A stretch of DNA of 64,000 bases from Promethearchaeota archaeon (lineage in GTDB: Archaea; Asgardarchaeota; Lokiarchaeia; Sigyniarchaeales; SOKP01). Location of the stretch: the NCBI GenBank assembly GCA_048938005.1, contig JBHLMQ010000013.1, forward strand, positions 1 through 64,000, given 5' to 3'. The notes under the pieces were generated by a model. It was not told where the DNA came from, did no database searches, and saw only the letters and a program-made list of their open reading frames with translations. The position numbers and the translations under genes are program-made. Numbering within the stretch: position 1 is the stretch's first letter; the number at the start of each line of letters is the position of its first letter. Positions 30,782-47,117 of this stretch are shown in pieces.

Positions 30782-32443
30782 GTGGAAAATTTGAACTGGG
30801 AGATATCTGATATTGATGCTCTAGGAAGAATTGGAAAATTAATTGTAAATAGAAAACAGTTAATTACTCCAAACTTATTTCCTGTGGTTCATCCTTTTAA
30901 AAAACTAATTTTAGCTCCAGATTTGAAGAAAATAGGTGTACAAGGTGTTTTTACAAATGCTTATATTATCTATCAGAATCCTCGGATACGAGATGATATT
31001 ATAAGAAAAGGCTTGCATTCACATTTGAATTTTGATGGCATAATCGCAACTGATAGTGGAGCGTTTCAAAAATATATGTATAGAAAACATAATTTAGAAA
31101 TTAAAGCAGAAGATATTGAAAAATTCCAAGAGGACATTGGTACAGATTTTGCCGTAATTTTAGATGACCCTGTCCAGCCAGATGATGATTATGATATAGC
31201 CAAGAATAAGGTTGATATAACAATTGAGAGAGCTAAAGACAATGTTATTCGTAGAAAAAAGGACACATGTTTTTGGTTTGGTCCAATCCATGGAGCAAAA
31301 TTCGATGACTTATTAAAAAGAAGTACTTTTGAGATGAATAAATTAGACTTTGCAATTTATGCAGTTGGTGGTTTAGTTAAATTACTACTAAATTATAGGT
31401 TTGACTTAGTAATTAGGATACTTCTAAATGTAAAAAAGAATATTTTATGGAATAAACCCCTTCATATTTTTGGATTGGGATTACCACAATTCTTTTCCTT
31501 GGCTGTGGCATGTGGATGTGACATGATGGATTCAGCAGCATATGTTTTATTTGCAAAGGAAAATAGATATTTCACATTGTCTACAGGCACAAGGAAATTA
31601 GAAGATTTAGAAGAATTTCCATGTAATTGCCCTATATGCTGTAAATACAAACCCAAAGAAGTATTAAATCTCGACAAGAAATTAAGAACTGAACTTTTAG
31701 CCAAACATAATTTATATATTTCTTTTTCTGAATTAAGAACAATACGTCAAGCGATTAAAGAGGGTAATTTATGGGAGCTTGTTGAACAACGGATTCGAAA
31801 TCATCCCGGTTTAGTAAAAGCTTCAAAATTAATTAAATTATATCTACCATTATTTGAGAGTCAGGAGAAATTGTATAAAATGCATGGTAGATTATATTCC
31901 TCTCCAGAGAGCATACAGAGACCTCTCTTATATCGTTATGAATTAAAACTAAAAAACAACTATCGAGTTCCAGAAGATGCGAAATTTTTAGTAATTCTAC
32001 CTGAATTAGATGTAAAGGGAGATCAATCACCAAGTATTAAGAAATGGCTGGAACAATTAGATACTAATTCATTAATTCCTAGAAAGTTTCTCCATATTAC
32101 TTTTTTTTCCGATTTTTATGGGATTATCCCACTAGAATTAAGCTCCTCATTTCCTATGGGTCAATATGAAGCAATAATGCCCATATATGAAAATGATTTA
32201 ATTTATTATAACTTGGTCCAAAAAACAGAATTATTCTTTAATCTCTACTCTAAGTATTATTCTAAATGTGGAATATTAATCCCTGATAACTTTATAAATC
32301 AATTCAATGAAATTGTGGAGTTCCCTAAAAAAAATATTATGAAAAATCTAACTAAAGCGTTAAATTCTAATTATAAATTGGAGATTGCTTCTTGCATTGA
32401 TATAATCACTCTTATTAAATATTTAAAAAGTGATGAAAAATAA
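30782..32443 (+). CDS. tgtA: Archaeosine tRNA-guanine(15) transglycosylase
   Basis: GRIGKL, TNAYII, TDSGAFQ, PLHIFGLG, DMMDSA, CNCPIC...HN, LWELVEQR. Confidence 0.95.
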   Translation: MENLNWEISDIDALGRIGKLIVNRKQLITPNLFPVVHPFKKLILAPDLKKIGVQGVFTNAYIIYQNPRIRDDIIRKGLHSHLNFDGIIATDSGAFQKYMYRKHNLEIKAEDIEKFQEDIGTDFAVILDDPVQPDDDYDIAKNKVDITIERAKDNVIRRKKDTCFWFGPIHGAKFDDLLKRSTFEMNKLDFAIYAVGGLVKLLLNYRFDLVIRILLNVKKNILWNKPLHIFGLGLPQFFSLAVACGCDMMDSAAYVLFAKENRYFTLSTGTRKLEDLEEFPCNCPICCKYKPKEVLNLDKKLRTELLAKHNLYISFSELRTIRQAIKEGNLWELVEQRIRNHPGLVKASKLIKLYLPLFESQEKLYKMHGRLYSSPESIQRPLLYRYELKLKNNYRVPEDAKFLVILPELDVKGDQSPSIKKWLEQLDTNSLIPRKFLHITFFSDFYGIIPLELSSSFPMGQYEAIMPIYENDLIYYNLVQKTELFFNLYSKYYSKCGILIPDNFINQFNEIVEFPKKNIMKNLTKALNSNYKLEIASCIDIITLIKYLKSDEK

Positions 32444-38043: not shown

Positions 38044-40331
38044 TCTCTATAAACTTCTTTAAAATTATCTGATATTTCAAATCTAGCATTATTGTGCCAA
38101 AATTTGAAATCTATTACATGAAAAAGTTCTCCCTTAAACAATTCTCTTTCCTCATTTGTTAAAATATGTTTTAAAGTTACCGTTAAAGGTCTTGGTACTA
38201 ATTTCGAAAAATATTTTAATTCCATATTTTTAATATAATTATAAAAAGTCTCATCCTCATCTAAATTAAAATAATTAATGGGAATTATTTTCTCTGTTTG
38301 AGGATTTAGATAATTCAACTCATTTTTAATATTATTCTTAACATACTTCGGGAATTCAATATTAATATCAATACTAAATTCATAATTCTTATAAAATTCA
38401 AGTAATAAACTTTTTTCTTCAGGATTAGGTATTTTGGCTATATACATGTCTAAAAAAGCCAGAAAATTTTCAATTTTTTGCTCATTTGATTCTCTCTCTT
38501 CAAAATATCCAATAAAATCATTGTATACCTCCGTTAATGTCCAAATTTTTTGTTCTTCTGGTTTAAGAAATTTCTTAGAATAATCTTTTATCCAATCTAG
38601 AATATAAAATTTCCACTCAAGGTTTATACCTCCTATTCTCTTTTCTAAAAATCTACGAAATCTATTCGCAAAAGTTACAGGATCACTGATTTCTTTATCA
38701 GGTTCCTCCTTAATATATCGATTTATTGTAGAATGTCGTAGAACATAGCTTAACAAATAACGGAGCTCTCTTGAAAATTTCTTAAATTTCTCAATATGTT
38801 CTCTTATTCTTTCAGTATTAGATTCCATCTGGATTTCTGCAAAAGAGATTAAATCATCTATTTTCAAATCTATTACGTTAAGGAAAATATCAATATTCTT
38901 ATCAACTATTAAAGTGAATTCTTTTATAAGTTCTGCTTCATCATATTTGAGATCCTTTTTTAATAGAATCGAGTGTGTTTCAATATGATTAAAAAGAAAT
39001 GCTTTAAATTTTCCAATTAATCTCTGTCCTAAAATTTTAGCCGGTTTTTGCTCCCTATTAAATTTCTCATTTAGGTTTTCAATTAATTTTATAGTTAATG
39101 TTTTTAATCTACGATAAGAAAGATATTTTGGAAGTGACCTCCTAATTAAATTTAGACTTTTTTTAATAATTTCAGAAAAATAATTGAAAACCGAAGTTAA
39201 TTCTATTATTCTCAAACTTTTTTCTTGCTTTATTGAATGTTTGATAAATTTTTTAGTTATTTTGAAAATTTCTTCAAAATTTTCATTTTCTAATTTTCCT
39301 TTATTTAAAATAAAATGTTCAAATTTGTATAATAATTCATCTATATCTCCTATTTCTCCTGTAATGAGAAAATTTCTAGAATATTCTAAAAATTTATTTA
39401 GAAATCTTTGTAAAACGACTAGTAATTTATCTATAGAGGAGATTAACCATTCTACTGTATGAGGTTCATCATATACTTGTATTTTTTTGCTAATATACTT
39501 AATTATAAAAACAACTATTTCATCTTGAGATTCATCTAATGTTCCTGTATTTGCCAAATTAATGAGATTAGTTCCTAAGTTTAAAGTCTTGTCAACAATG
39601 AAATTAGCACTTGGTTCAGATATTGAATATTTAAGATGTTCAATAGCTTGTTGTCCATCAAATGGAGTTTTCAGCTTTTGAAATTTAGAATTTAAAAAAT
39701 TTATCTCCATAGGTCTTTTATACCATAAAATTTCAACATTAGAGATAATTTTAGCATATGTACTTAACATTTCCTTTTCTGTTGGGAGAGTCCTGCTTAA
39801 ACCTATTAGTTTTCTGTTCCATTTTTCTTCTATTAGTTCTCCATAGAGTTTTTTACTAAATCTAGAGGCGAATTTGTTATACAACTGTTGTTTATTTTCT
39901 TTGTTTAATCCTGGGTGATTAGATAACTCTTCTACTTCAAAAAATAATTTACTTATATTATTCAATGATTCTCTAGATTTATGTATATCTAAAACTCCAG
40001 TTTCAGGTTTTAACGCAAGTAGCAAGCTTTCACAATCTTTAAATTTGCCTGGTATGAAAATCATTGATTTTGGGAAAATATTAATTCGAGCACTTTTTTC
40101 ATCAAAGTTGTATAAATCAAACTCTATACTAAACACTTCTGCTCCCGTATAATCCCGTAAAAAAGCATTATACATTGTTAGAAATCTAATAACTTCTTGT
40201 GAAAGCTCAATGACTTTTTTTCTTGTTAGCCTTCCAGGACCAATTACATCTCCAGCAATAACATCATTTGGAGAGGAATATCCAAATATCAATGAAAACT
40301 GGTAACTTATAGATTCGCGAGTTGTTATCAT
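38025..40331 (-). CDS. Large hypothetical protein
   Basis: 768 aa; alpha/beta N-terminus followed by a long helical region. Confidence 0.75.
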   Translation of the reverse strand: MITTRESISYQFSLIFGYSSPNDVIAGDVIGPGRLTRKKVIELSQEVIRFLTMYNAFLRDYTGAEVFSIEFDLYNFDEKSARINIFPKSMIFIPGKFKDCESLLLALKPETGVLDIHKSRESLNNISKLFFEVEELSNHPGLNKENKQQLYNKFASRFSKKLYGELIEEKWNRKLIGLSRTLPTEKEMLSTYAKIISNVEILWYKRPMEINFLNSKFQKLKTPFDGQQAIEHLKYSISEPSANFIVDKTLNLGTNLINLANTGTLDESQDEIVVFIIKYISKKIQVYDEPHTVEWLISSIDKLLVVLQRFLNKFLEYSRNFLITGEIGDIDELLYKFEHFILNKGKLENENFEEIFKITKKFIKHSIKQEKSLRIIELTSVFNYFSEIIKKSLNLIRRSLPKYLSYRRLKTLTIKLIENLNEKFNREQKPAKILGQRLIGKFKAFLFNHIETHSILLKKDLKYDEAELIKEFTLIVDKNIDIFLNVIDLKIDDLISFAEIQMESNTERIREHIEKFKKFSRELRYLLSYVLRHSTINRYIKEEPDKEISDPVTFANRFRRFLEKRIGGINLEWKFYILDWIKDYSKKFLKPEEQKIWTLTEVYNDFIGYFEERESNEQKIENFLAFLDMYIAKIPNPEEKSLLLEFYKNYEFSIDINIEFPKYVKNNIKNELNYLNPQTEKIIPINYFNLDEDETFYNYIKNMELKYFSKLVPRPLTVTLKHILTNEERELFKGELFHVIDFKFWHNNARFEISDNFKEVYREWVKEL

Positions 40332-40655
40332 AATTTAATTCCATTAACCAGTAGTAATTCTTAAATCAAGATATTATAAATATTAAATGTTCAGGCAAAT
40401 ACCTAAAATAAAAAATCAAAGGTTGTTTTAAATATTTTTAAGTTTATAAAGTATTAAAATTTACTTTTGAATAGTAAATAAAGTACACCTATAAAAATAT
40501 TATAGTAGAAATAAGAGAGTAAGATAATGAATTTAAAAGTCTTGATTTATTAATCGCACTCTATAAAGATTATTTAATTTTTTAAAATAAAAATATAATA
40601 AGAGAAAAACTATATTAATAATAATAAAAACTTAAAGCATTCAAGGTGTTGGCTT

Positions 40656-41060
40656 ATACAATTTGGGTCTGATTTAGGAATTAATCAAGAGGATATTGAA
40701 AAAATTAGCCCTCAAATTACTTTTATAACCTCTAATGCAGATATAGAAGCTATAGCACTTGTAAGTTTTGAAGGGTATCAAATAGCTTTTTCAGCTTTAC
40801 CACAATATCATGTTGATGGAGATCAATTTTGCGGACTTGCGAGTGCACTATTAATGACAGGAAGATCAACTATTCAGACTTTATTTCAGGAAGATTTGAG
40901 TGAAATCATAGTTCGGGCACAAGATGGCTATATCGTAATTACTAATGCGGGGCGACTAGTGATTGTCTGTGCAGGAACAATAATTGATACACTTATGAAG
41001 ACAGTAAAAGTTATGCGCATTGCAGCAAAGAATCTTTATAAAATTTTCGAAAATCGCTAA
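40656..41060 (+). CDS. Roadblock/LC7 protein (134 aa from ATA 40656; ORF track lists only the C-terminal 68 aa)
   Basis: In-frame DIEAIALVSFEGYQIAFSAL...FCGLASALLMTGRS...EIIVRAQDGYIVITNAG; AAGGTG ends 7 nt before the ATA. Confidence 0.85.
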   Translation: MQFGSDLGINQEDIEKISPQITFITSNADIEAIALVSFEGYQIAFSALPQYHVDGDQFCGLASALLMTGRSTIQTLFQEDLSEIIVRAQDGYIVITNAGRLVIVCAGTIIDTLMKTVKVMRIAAKNLYKIFENR

Positions 41061-41249
41061 AAAATGTTCTCTTTTTACTCACTCTTTTAGAGACAATCTT
41101 ATTTTACTTAATTTTCTTTCAAGAGTCTAGAATTTTTAAGCTCAAAAGTGAACATATTTTTCAACAAGTTTTAAAAAATTTCCATAAGTTTTTATTTATA
41201 GATGTATAAACAAGATTTAAAAATACATGATTGATTTTTTTTGACAATT

Positions 41250-41300
41250 ATGGCAACTGTAAGAAGTATTACTTGGCAGTGGCCTTGGCGTTGGCAATAG
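41250..41300 (+). CDS. Trp-rich leader peptide MATVRSITWQWPWRWQ
   Basis: 16 codons with TGG at 41274, 41280, 41286 and 41292; TATA-like TTTAAAAA at 41216-41223; lies upstream of trpB2. Confidence 0.8.
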   Translation: MATVRSITWQWPWRWQ

Positions 41301-41339
41301 AGTCAACTACAATGGATTTTACTTAAAATTGTTTTTTCA

Positions 41340-41377
41340 TTTTAATATTTCTTCTCAAAATATTAAAAACTCTTTTT
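41340..41377 (+). terminator. Candidate attenuator hairpin plus U-tract
   Basis: TTTTAATATTT-cttctca-AAATATTAAAA followed by ACTCTTTTT; another T6 tract at 41332-41337. Confidence 0.4.
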
Positions 41378-41419
41378 AAATGCGCATTATCTATATTGAT
41401 TTCCAATATCTAAATGATA

Positions 41420-41435
41420 CACATCTTAAGATGTG
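41420..41435. promoter_or_regulatory. Perfect 16-bp palindrome upstream of trpB2
   Basis: CACATCTTAAGATGTG. Confidence 0.45.
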
Positions 41436-41450
41436 AAAAAATGAATATAA

Positions 41451-42866
41451 GTGGTAATTAAAATGGTGGATTACTTTAATAGTAGAATTTTTTTACAACC
41501 AAATGAAATTCCAAAAGAATGGGTAAATATTTTACCAGATTTACCCTCTCCTATGACACCCTTAATCAATCCGATGGATGGGAAACCCGCTTCCCCAGAA
41601 ATGGCATTTGCTATATTTCCTAAAGAATGTGTAATGCAAGAAGTTTCTCAAGAATCTAATATACCCATTCCTAATGAATTAAGAGAAATTTTTGCGAGCA
41701 CGTATCGCCCTAGTCCTCTCCATCGTGCTTTAGCTTTAGAAAAAGAATTAGGTATAGAAGGTGATGAAATTAAAATTTTTTATAAAAATGAATCTTTATC
41801 TCCTACTGGTTCGCACAAACCTAATACTGCTATTGCCCAAGCATATTATGCAAAGAAGGAAGGAACAGAAGAACTAGTCACCGAAACAGGTGCAGGACAA
41901 TGGGGTTCAGGCTTAGCATATGGATGCAATCTATTTAAACTTAAATGCACTGTGTATATGGTAAGAGCAAGCTTTTTACAAAAACCAGGCAGAAAAATTT
42001 TAATGAGATCTTTTAATGCTGATGTTCATGCAAGTCCTTCGAAGCTCACTGAATCTGGAAAAAAATTTTTAGAAAAGGATCCAGGGCATCCAGGTAGTTT
42101 AGGAATTTCCATATCTGAAGCATTAGAGCATAGTATGAGAAGTGATAAAATAAAATATTCTCTAGGAAGTGTAGTTAATTTTGTACTTTTACACCAAACC
42201 ATTGTAGGACAGGAAGCTAAAATTCAATTAGCGAAAGTAGATATTGAAAAGCCAGATATAATAATTGGGTGCATGGGAGGCGGTTCAAATTTTTCAGGTT
42301 TGATGATTCCATTTGTCAGAGATAAACTCCGCGGAATAAGTCCAGATATAGAAATAATTGGTGTGGAACCTCGAGCATGTCCAAGTGTATGTAAAGGAGA
42401 GTATAGATGGGATTTTGGGGATACATCGATGAAGGGACCTATAGTAAAGATGCATACTTTAGGACATACTTTCATCCCAAGCCCAATTCATGCAGGAGGA
42501 TTAAGATACCATGGAATTGCTCCTATTATTTCAATATTATACAACAATCGAATTATCAATGCTACTATGCATCATCAAACTGAAGTTATTAAAGCAGGTA
42601 TTCAATTTGCAAATGCTGAAGGAATACTTCCTGCCCCAGAAACCGCTCATGCTGTAAAAGAAGCTATTGATCAAGCATTGAAAGCTAAAGAGGATAATGA
42701 AAAGAAAGTTATCTTGTTCAATTTTAGTGGTCATGGATTTTTTGATTTATTAGCTTATAAAAAATATATGACAGGAGAATTAATGGAATATGAATTACCA
42801 ACAGAAGAAATCCAAAAAGCTTTAGCGTCAGAAGAGATGCCTATAATTGATGAATCTCAATTTTAA
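41451..42866 (+). CDS. trpB2: Tryptophan synthase beta chain, TrpB2 type (likely start ATG 41463)
   Basis: SPTGSHKPNTA (PLP Lys), TETGAGQWG, GCMGGGSNF, IHAGGLRYHG, PAPETAHA, FSGHG. Confidence 0.96.
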   Translation: MVIKMVDYFNSRIFLQPNEIPKEWVNILPDLPSPMTPLINPMDGKPASPEMAFAIFPKECVMQEVSQESNIPIPNELREIFASTYRPSPLHRALALEKELGIEGDEIKIFYKNESLSPTGSHKPNTAIAQAYYAKKEGTEELVTETGAGQWGSGLAYGCNLFKLKCTVYMVRASFLQKPGRKILMRSFNADVHASPSKLTESGKKFLEKDPGHPGSLGISISEALEHSMRSDKIKYSLGSVVNFVLLHQTIVGQEAKIQLAKVDIEKPDIIIGCMGGGSNFSGLMIPFVRDKLRGISPDIEIIGVEPRACPSVCKGEYRWDFGDTSMKGPIVKMHTLGHTFIPSPIHAGGLRYHGIAPIISILYNNRIINATMHHQTEVIKAGIQFANAEGILPAPETAHAVKEAIDQALKAKEDNEKKVILFNFSGHGFFDLLAYKKYMTGELMEYELPTEEIQKALASEEMPIIDESQF

Positions 42867-44017: not shown

Positions 44018-44530
44018 ATGAAAATGTTAGAAGAAAAATTAAAAATTGATAAAATTTCTAAAGGGACTGTTATTGATCACATTGATGCAGGATATGCTTT
44101 AACCATTCTTAATCTTACCGGTATTGATGAATCCAAAAATTTAATGACAATAGGAGTTAATGTTTCATCAAAGAAATATCAAACGAAAGACATTATTAAA
44201 ATTGAGAACGTTTTCTTAAATGAAACTCAAATGCAACAGATATCTATACTTTCCCCAAATGCTACAATTTCTTTAATTGAAAATTATAAAGTAATTGAAA
44301 AAAAAAAGGTAAAACTTCCACAGATAATTAAAAAATTGATATTATGTGTTAATCAGACATGTATTTCAAATTCAGAAAAAGAACCTATCGAGTCTGAATT
44401 TCTAGTCTTAGAAGAAAAGCCCCTGAAAATACAATGTGTTTATTGTGAACGTATATACAAATTGGAAGAAATTATTTTTACCTCAAAAGAAAAGAAAGAG
44501 AAGAAAGTAATACAACGAATACAATTATAA
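44018..44530 (+). CDS. pyrI: Aspartate carbamoyltransferase regulatory chain
   Basis: GTVIDHI, KDIIKIE, CVNQTC...CVYCE. Confidence 0.95.
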   Translation: MKMLEEKLKIDKISKGTVIDHIDAGYALTILNLTGIDESKNLMTIGVNVSSKKYQTKDIIKIENVFLNETQMQQISILSPNATISLIENYKVIEKKKVKLPQIIKKLILCVNQTCISNSEKEPIESEFLVLEEKPLKIQCVYCERIYKLEEIIFTSKEKKEKKVIQRIQL

Positions 44531-45059: not shown

Positions 45060-47117
45060 ATGATTAAAGCGGCTAGTGAATTCTCTAATTTTGACGTCTT
45101 CGCTATTGTTAAAGAATTAGATTCGATCCTGAATAATGGTACAATTCTAAATATCTACGATATTGAAGATTTATTGATAATAAAAGTCAATACTAGTTTT
45201 GGAAAGAAAAATTTAATAATTAAGAAAGATTCTCGGATTAATTTAACTGAATATGATTATCCTATTCCAAATTATCCCAGTCAATATATTAGATCTCTAC
45301 GAAAATTATTAAAAAATCGAAGAATATTAAAAATTTCCCAACACCAATTTGATAGAATTATTATAATCGAATTAAGTAATAAAGATAACCAACCTTGGAA
45401 ATTTGTTATAGAATTATTTAATAAGGGAAATTTCTTACTGTTAGATGAAAAAAATGTCATACAAATTGCCAAAAAATACAGAAAATTTAGAGATAGAGAA
45501 CTTCTCGCAAAAAGAGAGTATATGTTTCCCAAATCTCAGGGAAGTAATTTTTTAACAATAAATAAAAAAGAATTTAAAGAATTATTTGAAAATTCAGATG
45601 TAGAAATTGTTCGAGATCTATCTAGAAAGATTCATATTTCTGGTTTATATAGTGAAGAAATATGTTATAGAGCAGATATTAATAAAAATGCTTACGGAAA
45701 GATCCTTAGTGTTGATGAATATCAACAATTATATGAATCTTTCAAAAATTTAAGAAATCAATTACTATTTGGTCATATTAATGCACAAATTGTGTTTGAT
45801 CAAAACGGGAATCAACTTTCTGTACTTCCTTTTGAAATTGATATTCTAAAAAATTATGATAAAAAAAAATTTAATTCATTTAATAAAGCAGTTGATGAAT
45901 ATTTTTCAAAAATCGATTCTGATGCTCTGAAGAGTCCAAGTGATCAAAAAATTGATGATCAAATAAAAACACAGGAGAAAATATTAAAAAATCAAAAAGA
46001 ATACCTTGAAGAGCTGAAAAGTAAAAAAGAGAATTATTATAAAATTGGAGATCTAATATATACTAAACTAAATTCATTAGAAAAATTAAGATCTGTAATT
46101 TTAGAAGCAAAGGAAAAAAAGTATAAATGGGAAGAAATAAATAAAGAATTAGAAAAAGCAAAAATGAAAAATCTAAATGGAACTGAATTATTCGTAAAAA
46201 TTATTACTTCAACTAATCAACTCTTAATAAAAATCAATGGTAACGAGGTTTATTTAGATTTAAAGAAAAGTGTTGGACAAAATGCTAATTCTATATATAC
46301 TAAAGGAAAAAAAGCTGAAAAAAAAATAAGTGGAACAATTATCGCAATTGCTAAAACTGAAGAAAATATTGATAGATTAAAACTTAAGAAAGAATCAATG
46401 GAAACCGAGGTTGATTTTTTAATAAAAAAGCCAAAGAAAAAATGGTATGAGAAATTCAGATGGTTTATTTCTTCCGATGGATTTTTAGTTATTGGAGGTA
46501 GAGATGCTAGCTCGAATGAAATAATTTTTTCAAAATATTTAAAATCACATGACTTAGTTCTACATACCAATTTTCCAGGTTCACCCTTAACCATAATAAA
46601 GAATCTTGAAAATAAGAAAATTCCAGAAGGTACTATACAAGCAGCAGCTGATTTTGTTGCAAGTTACTCTAGAGCATGGAAAGAAAATTGGGGGATAGTT
46701 GATGTTTTTTATGTAATGCCTGAACAAGTATCTAAAAATCCCCCCTCAGGAGAATTTTTACCAAAAGGATCATTTATGATATCTGGTAAGAAAAATTTTA
46801 TTAAAAATGCAAAAACAGAACTTGCAATAGGTTTGAATTTAATAGAAATAGAAAATGAAAGTATTAATGGCGTTAAAGTCAACTATCCTAAAATAATTTG
46901 TGGTCCTAAACGAGTAATAGAAAATCAATCTGAAAAGATATTGATAATAAAACCATCGAAAAAGGGATTAAGCAAAGGGAAATTAGCTAAAGAAATAAAA
47001 ACCTATTTCCTCAAAAATACAGATAGGGAATTAAAGAAATGGGTGAAATTATTATCTCTTGATGAGATTATTTTATTCCTTCCCAATGGGTTTTCTAAAA
47101 TTGAACTACCCAATTAA
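45060..47117 (+). CDS. rqc2: Ribosome quality control factor Rqc2/NEMF (NFACT)
   Basis: FDRII, IELFNKGN, WYEKFRWF, GGRDASSNE, PSGEFLPKGSFMI. Confidence 0.93.
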   Translation: MIKAASEFSNFDVFAIVKELDSILNNGTILNIYDIEDLLIIKVNTSFGKKNLIIKKDSRINLTEYDYPIPNYPSQYIRSLRKLLKNRRILKISQHQFDRIIIIELSNKDNQPWKFVIELFNKGNFLLLDEKNVIQIAKKYRKFRDRELLAKREYMFPKSQGSNFLTINKKEFKELFENSDVEIVRDLSRKIHISGLYSEEICYRADINKNAYGKILSVDEYQQLYESFKNLRNQLLFGHINAQIVFDQNGNQLSVLPFEIDILKNYDKKKFNSFNKAVDEYFSKIDSDALKSPSDQKIDDQIKTQEKILKNQKEYLEELKSKKENYYKIGDLIYTKLNSLEKLRSVILEAKEKKYKWEEINKELEKAKMKNLNGTELFVKIITSTNQLLIKINGNEVYLDLKKSVGQNANSIYTKGKKAEKKISGTIIAIAKTEENIDRLKLKKESMETEVDFLIKKPKKKWYEKFRWFISSDGFLVIGGRDASSNEIIFSKYLKSHDLVLHTNFPGSPLTIIKNLENKKIPEGTIQAAADFVASYSRAWKENWGIVDVFYVMPEQVSKNPPSGEFLPKGSFMISGKKNFIKNAKTELAIGLNLIEIENESINGVKVNYPKIICGPKRVIENQSEKILIIKPSKKGLSKGKLAKEIKTYFLKNTDRELKKWVKLLSLDEIILFLPNGFSKIELPN

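Follow-up and report, generated by a model that had tools for sequence, protein, structure and literature searches.

We describe a short open reading frame (sORF) of 16 codons at positions 41250-41300 of a 64,000-nucleotide (nt) stretch of DNA, hereafter the window, from contig JBHLMQ010000013.1 of the Promethearchaeota archaeon assembly GCA_048938005.1 (class Lokiarchaeia). The sORF ends 162 nt ahead of trpB2, the gene for a stand-alone TrpB-like enzyme, and, judged by comparison with related sequences, is probably a translated leader whose run of tryptophan (Trp) codons reports the supply of charged tRNA-Trp and thereby controls the downstream trp gene in cis. A first-pass annotation of the window had pointed out the frame, and on re-reading it matched letter for letter, including four Trp within the last eight sense codons. 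Similar frames were found upstream of trpB2 across the host family and upstream of a second tryptophan unit, the trpD operon, in most cases together with a conserved downstream element that we call R1.

Trp-rich frames upstream of trpB2

Loci of trpB2 were gathered from relatives of the host, a public genome collection, further genera of the family and sister families, counting distinct upstream regions only and excluding three partial trpB2 matches (L102, L109 and L121). A leader was scored where a frame with at least three Trp per eight codons lay no more than 450 nt upstream of trpB2. Within the same Lokiarchaeia family, 69 of the 78 distinct regions contained such a frame, 65 of them with an in-frame ATG, compared to a chance expectation of about 0.2 loci. 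The check proposed in the first-pass annotation, the presence of Trp-rich sORFs before orthologous trpB2 genes, was therefore strongly passed. Other Lokiarchaeia families contributed a further four cases out of 21 regions (L029, L034, L039 and L043), all with in-frame ATG and stop, and none was found among 17 trpB2 regions from outside the class, comprising records labelled Thorarchaeota, Bathyarchaeia or Bathyarchaeota, Methanoperedens and 'uncultured archaeon', one 'Promethearchaeota archaeon' (L117) and two bacteria.

Frames of this kind are rare in the host genome (3.72 Mb in 101 contigs, 29.8% GC, 95% completeness, 7% contamination), in which only 47 stop-free windows with at least four TGG per eight codons were found in six frames. 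This is a rate of about 6e-6 per position, or by simple arithmetic about 0.003 expected per 450-nt upstream region, and the leader is the only intergenic ATG-initiated sORF (8-45 codons) of the genome with at least four Trp per nine codons. One further window among the 47, WPWRRWQW, resembles a leader and was rejected because it lies off-frame inside a high-GC catalase-peroxidase-like ORF. This ORF (733 aa, minus strand of contig C65 of host genome G000, at about 80.7-82.9 kb) has a GC content above that of the 30% GC genome and was possibly acquired by transfer, or possibly belongs to the 7% contamination. A host genome screen for leaders rich in H, C, M, T, R, P, A, G, V, D, E or Q (F, I, L, K, N and Y lay outside it) returned 29 candidates, none of them convincing: Met-rich candidates were off-frame within a repeat protein and were rejected, and an H-x-H-x-H-x-H sORF on contig C57, which stands before the gene of a zinc-finger-like protein, was unconvincing as a leader. 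Two paralogous 42-codon sORFs with a hydrophobic segment followed by 10-12 glycines were also observed (C63:2349-2477 and C97:39438-39566).

Leaders were 12-34 codons long. Among the first 59 distinct leaders, four Trp were present in 38, five in 12 and three in 9, with the stop codon being TAA in 31, TAG in 24 and TGA in 4, and the last Trp was 0-3 codons from the stop in most loci. What stayed constant across clades was limited to Trp positions, frame and stop position; the peptides otherwise differed, both within the family (WQWPWRWQ, WCWQWPWRWR, WRWQWQWRS, WHWHWRC and WRWQWAWRWCR) and in other families (FWNLWQWWRL, LWTISWAWH, AWRWWSGLWVW and FWRWQWCWRWQ). The sole clade-specific insertion in alignment A1 (27 sequences) was 6 nt long and kept the frame. 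Between the ATG and the first Trp codon, the leader frame was open in 59/59 loci and the other two frames in 20/59 and 34/59. This openness of the other frames, together with the very short length of the sORF and the many small ORFs of AT-rich genomes, is what could be said for a functionless chance ORF in a conserved non-coding spacer, an explanation that we find hardly credible given the excess of leaders over expectation and their recurrence, with unrelated sequences, before two trp units and in four other families.

The same pattern bears on the idea that the UGG triplets are sites for a Trp-activated RNA-binding protein, with a logic like that of TRAP, and that translation of the sORF is irrelevant. 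The exact 6-nt period of the four UGG and a nucleotide conservation that includes synonymous sites would suit such a protein. We nevertheless judge it very unlikely, as an in-frame ATG and a nearby stop were kept in 65/78 family loci and in 4/4 sister-family leader loci, distant leaders preserved the frame of the TGG codons and not their spacing (adjacent WW, or gaps of 4-5 codons), and the triplets number only 3-5, against 9-11 in TRAP sites.

At the level of the genus, a 15-nt core, TGGCARTGGCCNTGG, occurred once per genome in 38 of 54 genomes, and the reversed control pattern in none; G077 has two copies of the core. TrpB2 had no match in 11 genus genomes, 10 of which also contained neither the 15-nt motif nor R1; the eleventh (G036) has trpD with an adjoining R1 match. 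Six family loci are leader-less, one of which (L097) looks like a decayed leader, with the Trp run gone and the 3' arm of hairpin H1 (described below) and a CATTGG box still in place.

Profile matches supported the earlier identification of the gene after the leader as trpB2, its product scoring 633 bits against NF009057 (cut-off 366) and 586 bits against TIGR01415 (cut-off 519), and falling below the cut-off of the classical trpB model TIGR00263 (149 bits, cut-off 392). In the 95%-complete host genome, searches found no trpA, classical trpB (trpB1), trpC (indole-glycerol-phosphate synthase) or trpE (chorismate-binding anthranilate synthase), nor a true trpD, for which the best match reached 49 bits against a cut-off of 199; the same searches were positive in 14/14 control genomes. 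TrpB2 is thus the only tryptophan-forming enzyme found there and, given its TrpB-like family and the lack of other trp genes, would form Trp from indole.

The trpD operon and the element R1

In another genome of the same genus (G077) the whole module is present twice, the first copy preceding trpB2 and the second (L144, G077:C17:41300-44300) preceding trpD-trpC-trpF with a leader that encodes MATVKSSAWRWQWPWR. The genes downstream of this second copy comprise trpD (408 bits against a cut-off of 199), a trpC-like ORF that stays below the equivalog cut-off (E = 1e-53) and the start of a trpF-like ORF. We found trpD in 25 of 135 family genomes and in 6 of 53 genus genomes, indicating that the trp pathway is patchy within the genus. 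Leader-like Trp-rich ATG sORFs preceded trpD in 19 of the 24 scored family loci, examples being MANEKIIPFRWHWSWRA, MAPENNSFWRWQWPWRWQ, MTTAKNFVWRWQWSWWRWQ and M..STWFWVWCWHA. L162, with no trpD match in its stretch, was left out of this count, and three loci with recognisable versions containing only two Trp (L147, L168 and L160) were not counted among the 19, the Trp-rich frame of L160 not being leader-like; in L152 and L157 the upstream region is occupied by another ORF. In other Asgard families, such an sORF was found 229-306 nt upstream of trpD in 4 of 38 loci.

Some trpD loci (L151, L166, L147, L168 and L148) represent a second module type, with peptides ending in WFWVWCWHA, a GC-rich hairpin (GCACGC/GCGTGC) whose loop contains the stop codon and, replacing R1, a long-range helix of 12 bp, TTTAGAATTTCT...AGAAATTCTAAA. 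In L147 and L168, two leader Trp codons have been turned into Cys codons. Because a Trp-rich sORF accompanies two different trp units with only its Trp codons conserved, the pattern has the signature of a regulatory leader and not of a small protein. The comparison supports a small Trp regulon consisting of trpB2 and the trpD operon, each with a leader and most with R1, across this Lokiarchaeia family and, sporadically, in sister families.

A covariance model of R1 matched 104 places in 100 of the 135 family genomes, with two matches each in the four genomes that are listed with two trp units (trpB2 and trpD, or two trpB2 copies). By-eye comparison with the gene listings placed 103 of the 104 next to trpB2 or trpD, the lone exception belonging to a small contig in a fragmented assembly. 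The outer and inner helices of R1 were 86% paired and covarying, and G.U outnumbered A.C by 16 to 5 in the outer helix. At the palindrome that follows (41420-41435) A.C outnumbered G.U by 20 to 5, unlike a sense-strand RNA helix; this palindrome was also the site of the sole terminator-like match, on the minus strand, in a scan for bacterial-type promoters and terminators. R1 might be an RNA sensor or a protein-binding site in its own right. A pairing between the CATTGG box that follows H1 and the TCCAAT of R1 is at most a lead, the 5-6 bp of complementarity showing no covariation (the box varies, R1 is constant).

RNA layout and proposed mechanism

The first-pass annotation had proposed a leaderless start directed by a TTTAAAAA box (41216-41223). 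That claim is not supported, as this box falls in non-conserved columns of A1 and a different, TTTTTA-type box, 57-63 nt upstream of the leader ATG in most loci, is the conserved one. The corresponding box of the host (P1, Table 1) has TTT.TA columns that are invariant in A1, and trpD leaders have a ATATAAATA box about 50-57 nt upstream of the ATG. P1 would act as promoter of the leader transcript and, at the usual archaeal promoter spacing, such a position predicts a 5' untranslated region (UTR) of about 25-30 nt rather than a leaderless mRNA. A five-codon mini-ORF in this presumed 5' UTR overlaps a conserved ATG(A/G)TT motif, seen in trpD modules as ATGATTT or ATGGTTT 8-13 nt before the leader ATG, which may be a weak Shine-Dalgarno-like (ribosome-binding) signal.

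The last Trp codons of the leader form the 5' arm of hairpin H1 and the stop codon lies in its loop, so that the position of a ribosome would decide whether H1 folds. In A1, H1 was 85.7% paired, with changes on both sides of its pairs; an alternative register with W1-Q-W2 as 5' arm was 83% paired with less covariation. All hand-drawn helices together were 84.6% paired, compared to 34-46% with slid partners, and contained 15 pairs with changes on both sides against 8.1 in shuffles, none of 500 shuffles reaching 15. Between clades the arms of H1 co-change (TTGGC/GCCAA, GGCG/CGCC, GGTCT/AGACC and GCACGC/GCGTGC), and G.U outnumbered A.C by 17 to 5, as for an RNA helix on the plus strand. Of 73 distinct loci, 66 had the stop codon in or beside a tight hairpin loop, whereas 30 shuffles averaged 32.6 such loci and never exceeded 43. 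The first-pass annotation had missed this conserved hairpin over the Trp codons and stop (41283-41315), as well as the TATA-like box at 41186-41195 and the 61-nt element at 41379-41439; its remark that the region has no GC-rich terminator/antiterminator pair holds.

Structure is also relevant to the suggestion of an arrest peptide of the TnaC type, in which free Trp would be sensed in the ribosome tunnel and, if plentiful, would stall ribosomes on or close to the stop codon, promoting termination or blocking downstream events. TnaC itself has Trp and Pro close to its C-terminus and stalls in the vicinity of its stop codon, and in the family the Gln, Pro and Arg between the Trp positions, as well as the stop position, are conserved beyond the needs of a codon counter. 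The conservation of Gln and Pro extends to synonymous positions, however, and is explained by H1 pairing; distant lineages keep only Trp, lack Pro and Gln and vary in spacing and length, and Pro is never the last residue. Taken together, these observations make an arrest peptide quite unlikely.

Downstream of H1, the U-tracts and 11-bp hairpin that had been reported between leader and trpB2 were confirmed. A run of at least five T follows the leader stop by 25-38 nt in most same-genus loci, and one sister-family locus (L034) has a GC-rich hairpin plus T6 after its leader. Transcription would terminate at U-tract 1 if it behaves like the archaeal U-tract terminators described in the available part of PMC8716108. 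Hairpin H2 had changes on both sides in 7 of 11 pairs, with 78.9% of cells paired and a G.U to A.C ratio (15 to 12) that does not separate the strands. U-tract 2 could serve as another site of termination or, alternatively, as TATA box for a proximal promoter, P2.

Table 1. Features of the leader-trpB2 region, in window coordinates
Feature	Position	Strand	Description
TATA-like box P1	41186..41195	+	AAGTTTTTAT; candidate promoter of the leader transcript; TTTTTAT starts 61 nt upstream of the ATG
Mini-ORF	41227..41244	+	ATG ATT GAT TTT TTT TGA
Leader sORF	41250..41300	+	ATG at 41250, TAG at 41298-41300; 16 codons and stop; peptide MATVRSITWQWPWRWQ; ATG GCA ACT GTA AGA AGT ATT ACT TGG CAG TGG CCT TGG CGT TGG CAA TAG
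Trp run	41274..41294	+	Four alternate TGG codons (W-Q-W-P-W-R-W), starting at 41274, 41280, 41286 and 41292; proposed sensor of Trp-tRNA supply
Hairpin H1	41283..41315	+	Inner stem GTTGGC 41290-41295 / GTCAAC 41302-41307; loop AATAGA holds TAG; outer TTG/CAA and CC/GG
U-tract 1	41332..41337	+	T6, 31 nt after the stop; candidate premature termination site
Hairpin H2	41340..41367	+	11-bp A/U hairpin, TTTTAATATTT / AAATATTAAAA; 41340-41350 pairs with 41357-41367
U-tract 2	41373..41377	+	T5 within CTCTTTTTAAAT; T-run before R1 kept in trpB2 and trpD modules
R1	41379..41439	+	61 nt; nested hairpin, then palindrome CACATC-TTAA-GATGTG (41420-41435); outer helix CATTA/AAATG; inner helix ATATTG 41393-41398 / CAATAT 41404-41409; invariant TTG...TCCAAT core; covariance model 74 bits
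Shine-Dalgarno-like site	41453..41458	+	GGTAAT, ends 4 nt before the trpB2 ATG; GGTAA columns nearly invariant in A1; putative ribosome-binding site
trpB2	41463..42866	+	Stand-alone TrpB-like pyridoxal phosphate (PLP) enzyme, 467 aa; profile matches; proposed regulated gene

The leader region is preceded in the window by a 68-aa ORF (40854-41060) that has no Pfam or NCBIfam match and whose synteny is kept in relatives, its C-terminus (...AAKNL.KIFE(G/N)R and stop) standing before the trpB2 regulatory region in L057, L062, L082, L085 and L097. Downstream of trpB2 are ordinary genes with no link to the leader, including those for PyrI, the regulatory chain of aspartate carbamoyltransferase (44018-44530), and an NFACT-family protein with domains of the ribosome quality control type (45060-47117).

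In the mechanism that we propose, transcription would begin from a promoter about 61 nt upstream of the ATG and yield a transcript with a short 5' UTR, ribosomes would translate the sORF, and occupancy of the Trp codons or the stop by a ribosome would determine both the folding of H1 and the accessibility of its 3' arm, three steps for which sequence comparison provides support. With ample Trp-tRNA, the ribosome would reach the stop and leave, H1 would re-form and the transcript, no longer translated, would terminate at one of the two U-tracts, by intrinsic termination or with the help of aCPSF1/FttA. With scarce Trp-tRNA, the ribosome would stall on the W-x-W-x-W run and keep H1 open, more polymerases would reach trpB2 and/or the R1 structure before the trpB2 ribosome-binding site would be remodelled. 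For the host, the outcome would be a switch that turns on Trp formation from indole at Trp shortage. Which step is controlled, premature termination or downstream initiation, we infer with less assurance: of the weight given to the leader reading, approximately half goes to premature transcription termination, a third to translational or RNA-structure control via R1 and the rest to other mechanisms. A downstream promoter or operator may act too, with both layers coexisting.

Several observations weigh against this proposal. Among public sequencing runs, 20 DNA runs containing the locus were listed and no RNA run. The counted loci are related, so that the counts overstate independence, and the Trp-rich frame lacks an ATG in four family loci (three of one genus and L135), although an in-frame TTG is available in the three and is a possible start. 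Synonymous third positions hardly vary within the genus in the Gln and Pro codons that interrupt the Trp run (CAG in 26/27, CCT in 22/27), so part of the conservation acts at the RNA level. A looser statistic, the stop codon being enclosed by any pair, was dropped as it did not discriminate (70/73 against 62.8 in shuffles), and RNAalifold on the full 343-column alignment returned only 16 pairs, in parts of H1 and R1. Folds constrained as if a ribosome covered either the Trp run or the stop codon revealed no conserved antiterminator in the eight leader loci folded (L001, L008, L014, L025, L034, L043, L088 and L131). The plus strand of the region contains no GC-rich bacterial-type terminator, which leaves unexplained how ribosome position would affect termination at a bare U-tract. 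For these last two reasons we do not file the module in the bacterial trp leader family, and termination receives only about half of the weight of the leader reading. Finally, R1 is kept in three leader-less species (L057, L062 and L097), so the downstream part can work without the leader, and U-tract 2, taken as a TATA box, could put R1 on the expected start site, the classical position of an archaeal repressor.

The observations on R1 would be accommodated by an arrangement of two units, in which trpB2 is transcribed from its own promoter (CTCTTTTTAAAT, 41369-41380) under a Trp-responsive DNA-binding protein on R1, and the sORF belongs to an independent small transcript that ends at the U-tracts; that transcript could provide a small peptide or RNA acting in trans, or its promoter could interfere with P2. 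The TTTTTAAA box precedes the centre of R1 by about 24 nt, the distance at which an archaeal start site and a repressor site would fall, R1 is built of nested inverted repeats and, as noted, persists without the leader, the excess of A.C over G.U at 41420-41435 does not fit a sense-strand RNA helix, and the U-tracts after the sORF could be plain terminators. The archaeal trp regulators named in the available text of PMC6737238, TrpY and Tar, are moreover DNA-binding proteins. Against two units, the T-run before R1 is a poor TATA in many loci (for example TTTTCGTAG and CTTTTGGTG), and in L062 and L097 TTACTAAAC stands in its place and the closest TATA-like run lies some 35-50 nt farther upstream, which would place R1 inside the transcript. 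The R1 helices covary with the G.U excess of a sense-strand RNA, and the 135 family genomes showed no copy of R1 apart from trp genes, such as one beside the gene of a regulator. Two separate units would also fail to explain why conservation of the sORF is confined to its Trp codons, frame and stop position, or why it is constantly in the co-oriented company of trp genes. We consider such an arrangement improbable, although it is the main rival of the leader reading.

Overall, we return to a translated, Trp-sensing leader, a reading well supported by comparison in both the trpB2 and trpD contexts, even though the leaderless start originally attached to it is not supported. More specifically, we lean slightly towards a Trp-codon sORF with its stop in a hairpin loop, coupled to termination at U-tracts or with aCPSF1/FttA and to a regulon-specific element, R1, which may itself sense Trp, tRNA-Trp or a protein. 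If this is true, it would be the first attenuation-type sensing of tRNA charging in Archaea within the literature searched, showing that ribosome sensing of tRNA charging is used for archaeal gene control and providing functional evidence for a regulatory use of transcription-translation coupling in the Asgard lineage. It would also pose the question of how ribosome position acts on a polymerase that terminates at U-tracts with aCPSF1/FttA. The leader-trpB2 region is a compact 290-nt cassette that is testable in tractable archaea, and the finding marks stand-alone TrpB2 as a regulated source of Trp, presumably from indole, in organisms without the rest of the pathway, with a bearing on partner dependence.

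Relation to known systems

Karr and colleagues are said to have reported in 2008 that TrpY also regulates trpB2. The hexamer TGTACA, which we take to be the TRP-box operator of TrpY, occurs five times in the window, nearest at 30937 and 48835, and not within 7 kb of the locus. According to the accessible portion of PMC6737238, archaeal Trp regulation is little known beyond TrpY of Methanothermobacter, to which the activator Tar (TK0271) of Thermococcus was added. Promoter recruitment is described as the only known target of regulation in archaea in the available part of PMC8448881, ribosome profiling of Haloferax identified upstream ORFs, without a regulatory mechanism in the part of PMC7261190 at hand, and the accessible text of PMC13681488 lists attenuation among the general roles of coupling. 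No archaeal leader-peptide attenuator was found in the full-text literature searched, with subscription journals mostly and supplements wholly outside reach, the matches being leader peptides of bacteria and reviews of a general kind, and leader-peptide control is new for archaea as far as this search extends, which does not prove its absence from print. The leader shares with TrpY and Tar a setting at archaeal trp genes and a proposed response to Trp; it differs from these proteins acting at promoters in being a translated-looking sORF associated with RNA structure.

Translational attenuation of ermC and cat senses antibiotics through a leader close to the regulated start codon. The layout of H1 and R1 would similarly allow a stalled ribosome to open a hairpin and refold the RNA before a ribosome-binding site. 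By contrast, the leader described here is 162 nt from the start codon, and no pairing that would mask the Shine-Dalgarno-like site was established.

TnaC is a short leader with an essential Trp, a stop-proximal event and factor-dependent termination, which senses free Trp and induces a catabolic operon; peptides of this type also conserve residues other than Trp and end in Pro. A short Trp-containing leader and a stop-proximal site are common to both. The archaeal module, on the other hand, precedes genes of biosynthesis or salvage, conservation across lineages is limited to its Trp codons, and Pro never ends the peptide and is absent from distant leaders. TRAP sites, as in the Bacillus trp leader, consist of 9-11 (G/U)AG triplets with 2-3 nt spacers and need no translation. 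Repeated triplets in a trp leader RNA are again shared; the archaeal leaders instead hold 3-5 in-frame UGG triplets within one reading frame bounded by ATG and stop, and their spacing varies in distant leaders.

Attenuation by leader peptides belongs to the textbook mechanisms of bacteria, whose trp operon is controlled by both a repressor and an attenuator. In enterobacterial trpL, the regulatory codons form part of the 5' arm of the 1:2 hairpin and the stop lies in its loop, much as the Trp codons and stop are placed in H1, a hairpin drawn in silico only. The resemblance extends to a short ORF with Trp codons near its 3' end, co-oriented directly upstream of trp biosynthesis genes and followed by a U-rich tract. 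Unlike trpL with its adjacent pair of Trp codons, the archaeal leader places 3-5 Trp at alternate codons, is followed by an additional conserved element, R1, before the regulated gene, and has bare U-tracts with an A/U hairpin in place of mutually exclusive antiterminator and terminator structures or a GC-rich terminator hairpin. An Rfam scan of 40300-41600 with E up to 10 gave no Trp_leader match, only five weak, unrelated matches far below gathering scores. The host is also an archaeon, and archaeal termination proceeds at U-tracts with aCPSF1/FttA, and not at hairpin terminators or through Rho, according to the available parts of PMC8716108 and PMC11616081.

In Actinobacteria, including the Cys-rich leaderless sORF attenuators of mycobacteria, sORFs with matching codons are known upstream of operons, mainly from comparative genomics, and some work without a canonical terminator, as given in the accessible parts of PMC1262725 and bioRxiv 10.1101/834739. 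The archaeal leader is likewise rich in codons for one amino acid and stands before the matching biosynthetic operon, and it differs from the leaderless actinobacterial sORFs in its archaeal host and in a conserved box that implies a 5' UTR. Ultimately, the archaeal module has in common with trpL-type leaders a short ORF rich in cognate codons, a conserved, co-oriented place upstream of trp genes, and Trp codons that overlap an RNA helix.

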